NCBI GenBank assembly: GCA_964016885.1
Contig: OZ024741.1
Location: 282,720,001 to 282,784,000 of the forward strand
DNA: 64,000 nt
Source of the DNA: Eledone cirrhosa
Taxonomy: Eukaryota
Reading direction: 5' to 3'
Part shown: positions 679 through 36,443 of the stretch, piece by piece
Layout of the letters: the number at the start of each line of letters is the position of its first letter
How positions within the stretch are numbered: the first letter of the stretch is position 1
Program-made: the position numbers and the translations under genes
Notes under the pieces: generated by a model
What the model was told of the DNA's origin: nothing
Seen by the model: only the letters and a program-made list of their open reading frames with translations
Database searches by the model: none

Positions 679-791
679 AGAAATGACTTCTACGGGAATA
701 GAACTGTTTCATTCATATAAAATCATCAGGAATGTATGACCTGATGATTTCATATGAATAAAACAGTTCTCGTCCGGTAAAAGTAATTTCT
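679..791. ncRNA. Palindromic element with two divergent hammerhead-ribozyme-like cores
   Basis: 52-bp arms 679-730 and 740-791 (45/52 identical by eye). Minus arm reads CTGATGA-TTTT-ATAT-GAAT-GAAAC; plus arm reads CTGATGA-TTTC-ATAT-GAAT-AAAAC-AGTTCTC-GTC. Confidence 0.6.
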
Positions 792-936
792 CTCTCTCGC
801 GCGCTCTCTCTCTCTCTCTCTCTCTCTCTCTATCTCTATCTCTCTCTCTCTCTATCTCTCTCTCTCTCTCTCTCTCTCTCTCTCTCTCTATATATATATA
901 TATATATATATATATATATATATATATATATATATA
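790..936. repeat. Compound (TC)n-(TA)n microsatellite
   Basis: Direct reading of sequence. Confidence 0.95.
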
Positions 937-2014
937 GTAATAATAATAAATTTGAAGACTAAAATCCAAAGAGGGCTCGATAAGGATAAATATATATCAA
1001 ATATATAAGAACCGTAGACTGGGAGATCCTAGCTAGGGCTAGATCGTATAACGGTAATAAAAGACCATGTGACCTCTGCGCCGCTGGGGCCCTGGAAATA
1101 CTCTACGCCAGACACCACATCTTAAACAAAAAATCTGAGGCAATTTCGGCTTGTAAACATAAATTGCACAAAACTTTCCTGTATTACAGCCCCACGCTAT
1201 ACCCTAACGGATAGTACGATTTATACGTGGATATTTTACGTCTTGATGTGGGAGCTAAGTATGTTTTGTTTATACCATTACTTATTTGCATAGGTAAGTA
1301 TATTTTACCCGTATGTTTTGTGAAGGTACGTATACCTTCTCGTACGTATATTTGATTGTTTATGTTATGGCGTATAATTTTATATATTCTGGTACATATG
1401 GTTTGGCTATGTGTATACGGGAGTTTTGCGTCTGTGCGAGTATGCAGGTTCGTACGTATGTTGGGTGTGTGTATATGTGTACTTCATGTTTTGGTTGACT
1501 TACATCTCCGAACATTCGTGTATTTACATGTAGGTATGTGTGTGCGCTTGTTATATACGTATTTATTTATTTATATACGTTTATATAATTATTTATTTAT
1601 TTGTATACACGCATACACACACATATTTATATGTGCGTGGTTTTGTATACCGATGGTAAGTGTTCTGCGTATGCTTGTGTATGTACGTATTTGTTTGCGT
1701 GTATGTATTTATTTATTTCTATTACTTCTGTATTGTATTTATTTACTTTGCTCTTAACTCTGTAGCGGAGATTCATTCGGTCTCCTAGTTAGAATTTTGT
1801 CTACGACTTCTGCTATACCATTTACGTGGTTTTGTCTTTGCGTGCTATTGTTCTCCACGTTCCACATATGACGTATTATCTTCGTTTTTTCCGTTCATTG
1901 CCAGAGAACGTCTCTATGAACCACCTAAGAGAACATTAGTCTACAACCTCTTTTATACCATAAACGTGGTTCTGTCTTTGCGCGTAATTGTTTTTCACCG
2001 CTCCTATTAATGAG

Positions 2015-2084
2015 TCACCATACTGAGAACAAATGTTTCACCTTGCGGATCTTCAGCTCCCAGCTGAAGATCCACACGGTGAAA
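2015..2084. ncRNA. Palindromic double-hammerhead-like element, right arm truncated at (GT)n
   Basis: Minus: GAG-CTGAAGA-T-CC-GCAA-GG-T-GAAA-CATTTG-TT-CTC. Plus: CTGAAGA-T-CC-ACAC-GG-T-GAAA. Shares flank CACCATACYGAGAACA with 3585-3599. Confidence 0.65.
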
Positions 2085-2483
2085 GTGTGTGTGTGTGTGT
2101 GTGTGTGTGTGTGTGTGTGTGTGTGTGTGTGTGTGTGTGTGTGTGTGTGTAAAATAAATAAAACAATTAAGCAAAGCATTTGGTCAACCAATTCCCCAGG
2201 GAATTACTAGAAACCAAAATATACGATAGTGCAATCAGTGGTTGTACATTCTACTAAATCTAAAGCTTAGTGTATTCATTCATGCATGCAAACATACATA
2301 TATAGACACAGACATACTAAGCTTTAGATTTAGTAGAATGTACAACCACTGATTGCACTATCGTATATTTTGGTTTCTAGTAATTCCCTGGGGTATTGGT
2401 TGACCAAATGCTTTGCTTAATTGTTTTATTTATTTTACACACACACACACACACACACACACACACACACACACACACACACA
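2085..2483. repeat. Near-perfect foldback: 121-bp arms (2151-2271 and 2316-2436) extended by (GT)n and (AC)n
   Basis: Arms are reverse complements with 1 mismatch seen; 44-bp spacer; the flanking microsatellites are also mutually complementary. Confidence 0.9.
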
Positions 2484-33700: not shown

Positions 33701-34744
33701 AATTTTTGTTGGTGTTTTTCAAGTGTCTGTAAAATATACTGCTTCACAGATGTTATTTCTCAAACATATTGTCTCACTGTAATTACTCACACATGCATGG
33801 TGGATATATATATATATACACACACACACAATATATATTTAGCAATATATATATAGTAAAGAAGATCTGTGGTGATCTTAGGTGAGACACACTTCACACA
33901 CACACTGTGTGTGTGCATGTGTATATAAACATACATATTGTATTTTAGGAGGGTCATACAAAACAGAAATACCTCTTAGCCTCCAAATTATTGTACTCAA
34001 TTAATTCCATCAATTTACCTTGCTCTAAATCAACTTCAAATAGCTCCCACTTCAATTTAAACAGGATAAAGGGTGCTAAGAGAAAAAAAAATCCATAATA
34101 CATCTTAGTTTACCCCATGAGAGTGTTTCCAACACAATAAGAGCAATACAACATTAAAAAGCTAACTAGAAATAAATAAGGTGAAAAAAATATCATTCTA
34201 TAACTAATATTTTTTCCCACAGGCAAGAACCAATAACTCTAGACATGTTTAGGCATTATTGTTACCTCATTAGTAAATTATAGTGATCACTGGACATACA
34301 GAAGTAGTGACAAATGAAGCACTCAGTAAAATATCCAAGATTGTACATTTATTGGCATAGGAAAATATATAATCATTTAGAAATTAAATAATTCAGATGC
34401 CAACTATATGAAGAACAACAACTTATTAACATATCTAATGCACATTAAATGAACATTAAATAGCTAACTAACAATATAGATGTGATGGATTTTGTAAAAT
34501 ATGGATATGCAAATGTTAACTGAAATGAGAGTAAGAGTGTCACCTATGTTGAGAGTGAATTAGAATAAGACAGGTAGTGTAACATGTCTGACTTAAGGTT
34601 GTAGATCTAATAACATTCTGCTCCTGATTTTGTGTTCAATGTTTAAGCATTTACCACAAATCTAGCTATTGAGTTACAACTGGTTTATGTTGTTTGACCT
34701 CCTTTGTTTCTGACAATGAGTGCTCTAGTTGATTCAATCAACAG

Positions 34745-35014
34745 AACTATCTGCTTGTGAGATTAACATGTAAATGACTGAGCATTCCACAGATATGTGC
34801 ACCCTTAATGTAATTCTCAGAAAGATTCAATGTGAAGCATTTTGTAACAAGACTAGCCCCTTGGATTACAGGTACAACTCTTTTTTTTTCAAACTGAATT
34901 GACTGGAGTAACATGAAATAAAGTGTCTTGCTTAAGAACACATGTAGCCTGGTCTTGGAATTGAACTCATGACCTTGCGATCATAAGCTGAACACCCTAA
35001 CCACTAAGCCATGC
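34745..35014 (-). mobile_element. SINE family B
   Basis: Reverse complement gives TGGCTTAGTGGTTAGG A-box and GAGTTCAATTCC B-box; body matches 11630-11945. Confidence 0.78.
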
Positions 35015-36275
35015 ATATTATGTACTATGTTTGTTACTGGCCATTTATAATTACTTAAATGCGTATGCTCTACCCAATTATATACACATGTTGCAAGAAT
35101 TTCATTTTCATGTCACTGAATTAAAAATTGTTGAATTTGATCAAACCAAAATATCATATAAAACAAGTTTGTATAAACATGACCCATAGATATCATCCAC
35201 TATAAATAGAGCTTTATACATAATTATTCTGTTAAATTGAGATAGTAAGCAAATTTCATATGTAGCAAGTCTAAAAAATATGTTTTCATATATGAAATTT
35301 ATCCACTATGGTACTGTAAAATGTGACACAGTTTTCATCCACTATAAATAAAGTTTGATACATCTCAAACTCTACAAACCATTTCCGTAGTGAAATACTA
35401 AATTGTCAAACTGTTTAAACTAACCAATATATATTGCCCCTCTCTAATTTTGTTTCAATTCTTCTACAGGCCTAACTTGTCAAAATGTAGTGGAACTTAT
35501 CAGGTTGCTTCCAAGAATCTCTTGCTCACTCACTTATTATTATTTTATTTTTTTGAAGACTTCAACTCATTAAATATTGTTTTAGTTTATTTATATTTAC
35601 AAAATGTTTAATATCTCACCCTTCCCCCTTTTCCATATATCAACATACAATTAACCCTCATAGACACCAACATGCTTAAAACCACTACTGCGTCTATATA
35701 ACAAAACCAACCATTTTAAAAGACCCCTACTTAAATTAAAACCTTCCAACATAATTCTATCTAAGAACATTATGTACCATCTTAATGAAATTACCATTTT
35801 AGTAAATCCTTCCAAAAGTCTATTAACTACAAAATATTTCATTAGAAACCAATATATCTTCTTCTCCACCCACTACTACATCTGTATGATGCTTATAAAT
35901 CAAATCAAATGTTTTTTGTTTTGTTTTTATTTTGATGACAAAATATGAAACAATAATAGTGCGTATCTATTGCCAGGTGTACAACAACAGCAGCAGCTAT
36001 ATAATTTCTCTGAAATTCAATCACTATTGAATATATATTCTTTTGTTTATTTTTCATGCTTTAGGGAAGAGGTGGGTACTGTTTCTGATAGGTTGACCAA
36101 CTAGAGTTAATCCCTAACAACTTAACGTCAAGAAAAACAATTATTTAAGAGCTATTAAACATTTAAGAAGAAGTTGGGCTAGTGAACAGATGATCAGAAA
36201 ACTTATAATGTGTGTGTCTGTGTGTGTGAGTCATATTGACAGACATGAGAATGAGTACTGAATACCAAAGTAGAG

Positions 36276-36443
36276 TTTAATAATATCCTTTATTATGACT
36301 AAATGATGAGTTTTATTAATCTAGAGTTTCACATATATATTCACAGGATCATCAGACAAGACTTGTCTGATAATCCTGAGTAGACAGGTAAAACTCCAGA
36401 GAAACAAGACTCATCACTTAGCCATAATATAGAATATTATAAA
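36276..36443. ncRNA. Old palindromic double-hammerhead-like element, about 1 kb downstream of the ZNF stop
   Basis: Arms 36276-36360 and 36362-36443. The two-arm consensus gives CTTGT-CTGATGA-T-CCTG-AGTAGA-CAGG-T-GAAA-CTCTAGAG-TA-ACAAG, a complete type-I topology. Confidence 0.7.

Follow-up and report, generated by a model that had tools for sequence, protein, structure and literature searches.

Is a palindrome that carries two hammerhead ribozymes back to back, one on each strand, a mobile element in its own right or the trace of something larger inserting itself? The question is raised by a 64-kb stretch of the 3.0-Gb Eledone cirrhosa genome (OZ024741.1:282720001-282784000, referred to here as the window), in which four short palindromes each contain a divergent pair of hammerhead cores. 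Our analysis indicates that these palindromes are a miniature form of the known insertion anatomy of Penelope-like elements (PLEs) and not a new ambisense ribozyme class, and that the two hammerheads are passengers of the insertion geometry. We consider it likely that each palindrome is a PLE insertion without an open reading frame (ORF), hereafter a stub, consisting of two hammerhead-bearing pieces of the pseudo-long terminal repeat (pLTR) placed head to head by twin priming and joining of run-off cDNAs.

The first-pass annotation of this DNA had reported four inverted repeats between divergent CTGANGA cores, in three sequence families, and we recover all of them at the same coordinates. The cores start at 729(-)/741(+), 2056/2064, 3625/3650 and 36355/36367, spaced 7-24 nt apart, with one inverted repeat around each pair. 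Family A is represented twice (2015-2084 and 3567-3757), family B once (36230-36443) and family C once (679-791, a copy of subfamily C1). The palindromes are asymmetric, with a tail of approximately 65 nt, overlooked at first pass, on one arm (3706-3757; 36230-36275; 471-548). Their parts are as follows:

471-548, minus strand: family C tail with a bulged hairpin, recognised by blastn and split from its arm by a later short interspersed nuclear element (SINE)
553-672, plus strand: SINE-like repeat inserted at the TA-rich boundary between arm and tail of the family C copy
679-729, minus strand: tail-bearing arm of family C (C1), type-I hammerhead with an intact core from 729
730-740, no strand: head-to-head junction of family C, 11 nt
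741-791, plus strand: short arm of family C with a damaged core (AAAAC), followed by (CT)n/(TA)n
2015-2056, minus strand: family A arm with an intact core, truncated at its outer end
2064-2084, plus strand: family A arm interrupted after GAAA by the (GT)n of a neighbouring repeat; junction at 2057-2063
3567-3625, minus strand: short arm of family A with an intact core and a mismatch at the first stem I pair
3626-3649, no strand: family A junction, 24 nt, with TACAGAG duplicated
3650-3757, plus strand: long arm of family A with a 12-nt deletion that removes GAAAC, tail at 3706-3757, then (CT)n(TA)n
36230-36355, minus strand: long arm and tail (about 36230-36275) of family B, retaining the core motifs but with damage to stem II and to the cleavage triplet
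36356-36366, no strand: family B junction, 11 nt, equal to the two 5' strands of stem I
36367-36443, plus strand: short arm of family B with a dead core (CTGATAA, AAAAC), then a TA-rich microsatellite

The displaced family C tail was identified via the tail of another locus (L077), which aligns to window positions 546-444 at 80% identity; the repeat at 553-672, which we take to be a SINE, also flanks other loci. An intact core reading outward on both strands, as first proposed, is found in none of the four window copies (two intact cores, 0/4). AAAAC replaces GAAAC at 741+, the core at 2064+ ends after GAAA, GAAAC is deleted at 3650+, both core motifs are altered at 36367+, and the 36355- core has TTA where GTA is expected in addition to its damaged stem II.

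The paired cores are nevertheless far more frequent than chance would give, as the first-pass annotation had anticipated. The window holds 3 exact divergent core pairs, compared to a mean of 0.215 (maximum 2) in 200 shuffles; the fourth pair escapes the exact pattern because its plus-strand core reads CTGATAA. Across the genome, the pattern GTTTC N9-12 TCNTCAG N0-30 CTGANGA has 13,446 matches versus 9 for the backwards control, and the same pattern with N13-24 has 1,158 versus 56. Counting that one locus may score once per strand, these numbers therefore correspond to roughly 7,000 or more loci with exact cores. BLAST-type searches returned 1,666 (A), 1,769 (B) and 2,799 (C) first-look candidates, 40 of which were scored per family. 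The four palindromes are real and enriched, and ORF-less stubs number thousands of loci. Other loci (L141-L170, L129) hold additional hammerhead families that are likewise arranged head to head, in some cases with long arms; an L129 palindrome is joined inside the ribozyme and lacks the CTGANGA core.

In their majority sequences, families A, B and C all have the type-I hammerhead order, with CUGANGA, GAAA, NUH and three stems. Stem III is AC-AATT-GT with cleavage triplet GUU in family A, ACTC-CA-GAGT with GUA in family B, and ACAG-8nt-CTGT with GUA in family C. The proposed type-I assignment is thus borne out, but a minimal palindromic stem III is not a property of family C, where a 4-bp stem carries an 8-nt loop. 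An Rfam scan of the window, the check suggested at the outset, returned no hammerhead family among 49 matches at E<=5, only microRNA (miRNA)-like hairpin noise. With the 5' and 3' strands tallied separately, the C subfamilies differ from each other at both partners of two stem I pairs. Among 13 C arms hand-picked for an intact 5' flank, the formal count of stem covariation is mixed, with 9 cells at 0/500 shuffles and 2 pairs at 362/500, and stems II and III are nearly invariant. Minimum free energy folds of monomers sometimes retain stem I; the full junction is not recovered. Whole copies fold as a single long hairpin with predicted energies of -31 to -120 kcal/mol, in which a full transcript is predicted to bury both hammerhead cores. 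Such folding agrees with the earlier idea that each ribozyme is preceded by its own antisense lock, although this would follow from any palindrome.

In copies scored outside the window, a junction separates the short arm from a long arm that bears the approximately 65-nt tail; each half spans about 50-135 nt and has no ORF. In the first 40 distinct pattern loci in position order, the tail is on exactly one arm in 37, on neither in 3 and on both in 0. Inspection of target sites shows that copies are flanked by microsatellites, present at the short end in 31/37 and at the long end in 35/37 copies, against a background of 15% of 1,470 windows. Junctions are distinct in 19/19 A, 15/18 B and 17/25 C copies, with 5 of the 23 distinct B loci set aside because no core pair could be parsed in them; one junction recurs in 3/18 B copies and another in 6/25 C copies. 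In subfamily C2 (n = 13), the two halves overlap by 2-3 nt in 5 junctions and are separated by 1-6 extra nt in 8. Miniature inverted-repeat transposable elements (MITEs) end in symmetric terminal inverted repeats and share a constant interior between copies, whereas the stubs have asymmetric ends and a copy-specific centre. For families A and C, the mobile ambisense double-hammerhead or MITE-like unit proposed at first pass finds no support, since junctions vary among copies, the tail is on one arm, and the arms are 3' ends of PLEs with ORFs (see below).

The families were also thought to share only the catalytic core and the geometry. Besides the microsatellite targets, however, all three families, and a fourth one, have in common a bulged tail hairpin of the form CTC-stem-loop-stem-T(T)-GAG, located around +67 to +80 and found in 23/74 A, 5/20 B and 45/129 C arms, totals that include short arms. 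This motif can also be seen in a published supplement entry with a hammerhead matching that of the coral element Hydra-2_aMil (PMC8557442).

From which larger elements do the arms derive? That they are linked to PLE termini had been suggested, and for families A and C we are nearly certain that the arms are PLE 3' ends (pLTRs), belonging to elements with ORFs; family B arms are, with good probability, PLE ends as well. Family A was anchored on its tail alone, which has 2,153 exact matches genome-wide, and the first 70 in position order were examined (the duplicate pair L182/L183 both retained). Forty of these loci have an adjacent inverted piece, a short arm in 38 cases, and 12/70 extend 400-680 nt upstream into the end of a GIY-YIG-type endonuclease ORF. 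One locus (L293) is a whole family A element with pLTR, tail, 5' untranslated region (UTR), frameshifted ORF and a 3' pLTR ending at +68; its hammerheads are 2,537 nt apart and the tail runs on into the 5' UTR and ORF. Two others (L296, L297) have an inverted short arm, a truncated ORF and a tail arm. The young subfamily C2 also has a long parent (2,685 candidates). One C2 copy, L290, consists of an inverted tail arm, truncated ORF, 3' UTR and short end, and the parent ORF also lies upstream in L274/L275 and L292. Matching of arms to the termini of PLEs with reverse transcriptase (RT) and GIY-YIG domains, as had been recommended, hence succeeded for A and C2, with C1 connected via relatedness. 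A further whole family A element (L294, G000:C1:69107500-69116000) starts at about +63 and ends at +68, giving an exact unit length without a 5' hammerhead.

The A and C2 parents are shorter than 3 kb and have a single ORF with a C-terminal endonuclease (EN), DKT, CxCx5C linker, CxxC and CxH motifs, no CCHH, a canonical type-I 3' hammerhead and a (TA)n insertion. These are features of the Hydra clade (PMC8557442), and the two parents are apparently Hydra-type by motif, as compared by eye. They are 39% identical in RT; in translations, the family A parent has RWR in place of RWK, and homologues reach about 680 aa. Pfam leaves the family A protein pieces unrecognised, and the C2-parent EN matches GIY-YIG with E=0.0013, below the cut-off. 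The family A ORF resembles that of Hydra-1_Obim by eye, but the hammerhead sequences differ (PMC8557442); because of this difference, and since two family A 14-mers are absent from the supplement of that paper, the present families look like additional ones. The Hydra-type families are apparently new, but may already be annotated, for instance in Repbase or Dfam. Of 10,597 GIY-YIG candidates in the genome, 150 were scored. Elements with long GIY-YIG ORFs (e.g., L121) were considered as parents and rejected; they belong to a different PLE group, without a blastp match to the A and C2 parents at 1e-5. By eye, a GAAAG/CUU hammerhead variant is present downstream of the GIY-YIG ORF, in the 3' UTR, in another PLE group (L124, L125, L130, L134).

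The positions at which the halves meet and end are informative about how stubs arise. Junctions are concentrated where stem I begins on its 5' side, not at the cleavage site. In C2, 16/25 arms stop at -5 to -7 and 0 at -8 to -12, and a TATA sequence, TATAAATA, starts at -36 in 30/30 long copies, so that the limit lies 30 nt below it. For family A, 46/108 breakpoints are within -14..+8, a density of 2.0 per nt, whereas the surroundings of the cleavage site have 4 (0.44 per nt). The outer ends are fixed too: inverted A arms stop at +67/68 in 29/38 loci and long A arms at about +130 (2/40 inverted pieces lying off the short site were dropped from the tally of ends and breakpoints), while long C2 copies make similar use of both sites (17 end at the tail one, 13 at the short one, after correction of one flag by eye). 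The arm at the short site extends further 5' in 18 of 38 A loci, the tail arm in 5, and both reach similarly far in 15. Arms can hold up to 310 nt upstream, or the whole ORF, missing from their partner. Both arms of a copy nevertheless resemble each other: C2 pairs have the same stem II variant in 13/13 copies (7 + 6), and A pairs have 12 private variants in common versus 1.8 expected (p=0.0005). Upstream of the family A hammerhead, by 30-60 nt, are the words GCGCATGCGC and CTTCCTG (L175, L213, L240), which we presume to resemble NRF1 and ETS promoter motifs.

These observations suggest the following route. Transcription from the pLTR promoter would begin at the 5' boundary of stem I, as the C2 TATA at -36 hints. 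The RT-endonuclease would then cut a microsatellite and prime both target strands on RNA from one source, one strand at each of two internal sites. A cDNA primed in the 5' pLTR copy would run off the RNA 5' end after 60-140 nt, just upstream of an uncleaved hammerhead, while priming in the 3' pLTR copy would yield the long truncated arms. The two cDNA ends would presumably be end-joined by host repair. Each palindrome was thus likely built afresh from the start of a PLE RNA, not spread as a double-ribozyme unit. Twin priming with run-off is, in our estimation, probable, perhaps a shade less so than the reading as a whole. It is proposed by analogy with the Anolis Poseidon PLE protein, which in vitro cuts and extends both strands at AT-rich targets (Frangieh et al. 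2024, PMC11167929). In that system, two internal RT starts downstream of the hammerhead define a tail, and mostly uncleaved RNA is used (PMC11167929). The stubs similarly have two fixed ends with the tail between them, although Poseidon belongs to another clade, and the passages of that study covered here do not deal with the formation of an inverted junction. The alternative raised at first pass, stereotyped products of PLE reverse transcription, is supported, as is the link to PLEs.

Several findings weigh against this reading. No adjacent inverted arm was seen within the 750 nt examined in 30/70 A loci. The parent ORF is tied to C2, and the window's C1 copy is linked to it by sequence relatedness only; the recurring C1 junction, 7 nt, is identical in 6/25 copies. 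Family B has no ORF-bearing parent in 68 loci: 30 pattern-anchored loci have no shared upstream sequence, and tblastn matches in 4/68 loci are not contiguous with the arm. The in vitro work behind the twin-priming analogy concerns a different clade. The excess of shared variants falls short of significance in families B (p=0.11) and C (p=0.08). Stem I ends exactly at the C2 limit of -6, which could therefore have a structural cause, while family A has no TATA at -36 and a wider breakpoint spread. The 30 copies with the TATA sequence are the top matches of one young family (96-97% identical) and are therefore not independent. Finally, part of the arm asymmetry could stem from later deletions in hairpins.

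Among other explanations, the one that survives best, though we consider it unlikely, is that, with the same PLE origin, a single cDNA or antisense template folds back and primes its own second arm, the short end being generated via the endonuclease or TA microhomology. Antisense self-priming is the published proposal for inverted pLTRs (Arkhipova et al. 2013, PMC3846280). It would explain the variants common to both arms, the position of some junctions on 4-nt palindromes or small hairpins, and the similar 5' reach in 15/38 A loci. However, a simple fold-back is the poorer match, since either arm may contain sequence absent from the other, namely the tail on one side and the extra upstream sequence or whole ORF on the other. 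In addition, 8/13 C2 junctions contain extra bases instead of a clean loop.

We give less credit still to the possibility that RT stalls at the ribozyme structure or leaves the template there, or that truncation is length-biased, and that this, not the RNA 5' end, explains the concentration of breakpoints at the hammerhead. The position of the C2 limit at the end of stem I, the broad A spread and the 5' truncation typical of PLE copies would suit it. RT would arrive from the 3' side of the structure, however, where breakpoints are 4-5 times rarer per nt, and the C2 limit is sharp and below a TATA box. Equally improbable is that one or more of the families, with B or else C1 as the most plausible candidate, spread as a non-autonomous palindromic double-hammerhead RNA that uses PLE enzymes in trans: copy numbers in the thousands, the missing B parent and the recurring B and C junctions speak for it, but these junctions occur, by eye, in both orientations relative to the tail, as microhomology would give, the B tail hairpin is shared with C and the published coral Hydra element, a full transcript is predicted to bury both cores, and family B is old (arms about 19% apart), so its parent may have decayed.

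A more detailed version of the twin-priming reading, to which we assign even chances, is that stubs record PLE integration itself. A dimeric RT-endonuclease would prime at two sites flanking the bulged hairpin and copy uncleaved RNA to its capped start, much like the strong-stop DNA of long terminal repeat (LTR) elements, before end-joining. If true, a single mechanism would lie behind the ORF-less stubs, the inverted pLTRs and the presence of a tail on one side only, and a minimal template of ~130 nt with its recruiting hairpin would be defined.

How much of this is new? EN+ PLE units with an inverted, 5'-truncated pLTR head to head and an optional 30-40-bp tail have been described (Craig et al. 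2021, PMC8557442; PMC3846280). The stubs resemble them in head-to-head geometry, a tail at one end, junction palindromes, a pLTR hammerhead and microsatellite targets. They differ in that the halves measure only about 50-135 nt without an ORF, the tail is about 65 nt, loci number in the thousands, and junctions concentrate just 5' of the hammerhead. The first-pass annotation had stated that novelty would fall if the families were known inverted PLE termini, and in substance this is the case because the inverted pLTR with tail is already published (PMC8557442, PMC3846280). The origin of tandem and inverted PLE termini is named as an open question in PMC8557442, and twin priming departs from the self-priming proposal of PMC3846280. 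Titles and abstract openings, with few subscription papers covered, contained nothing on ORF-less double-hammerhead PLE stubs, nor on PLE twin priming, start-site run-off or the tail hairpin. The main text of an octopus repeat annotation (PMC13282606) mentions neither hammerhead, ribozyme nor palindrome. A possible link to the Eulor/UCON13 hairpin repeats found no support in the excerpt of PMC5753468. Non-LTR retrozymes are non-coding, have a type-I hammerhead and derive from PLE pLTRs (bioRxiv 10.64898/2026.07.22.740005), but they are head-to-tail tandem repeats, whereas stubs are head to head. Among 19 distinct A loci, a tandem array was seen once (L002, G000:C10:45065970-45066647), where a palindrome is joined to a retrozyme-like array in which the family A short arm is repeated seven times in tandem as a 74-bp unit.

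The stubs are of value as a testable handle on the open PLE mechanism and for the tail hairpin common to families. Abundant young copies with near-identical arms allow predictions at base level, namely the start site, the two priming sites and the hairpin between them. Thousands of stub loci could also be mistaken for MITEs, double ribozymes or miRNA hairpins. Read-through transcription would turn stubs into long double-stranded hairpins; as stubs beginning at the start site would have no promoter, and their read-through product is predicted to be a long hairpin, they are probably dead ends.

Several other features of the window were noted. At 1011-1211 lies a remnant of a Hydra-type endonuclease C-terminus, 49% identical to the C2-parent EN (E=1e-16). 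A palindrome with 186-bp arms at 2086-2501, between (GT)n and (CA)n and without a hammerhead, truncates the 2064+ arm. It was considered as a hammerhead-free analogue and rejected, as the 12 other copies viewed are single non-palindromic units; it is a one-off fold-back of part of a dispersed repeat of ~350 nt (1,538 first-look candidates). On the minus strand, two repeat-end copies (2560-2700 and 3260-3400), within a duplicated unit of ~310 bp, have GAAA upstream of CTGATGA, resembling a hammerhead in scrambled order. Also on the minus strand, 4225-7500 holds a broken LTR-retrotransposon pol with RT, RNase H and integrase motifs read by eye, and 37481-40936 is an open frame of 1,151 aa with a C2H2 zinc-finger array at its end, beyond whose stop, by about 1 kb, the family B copy is located.

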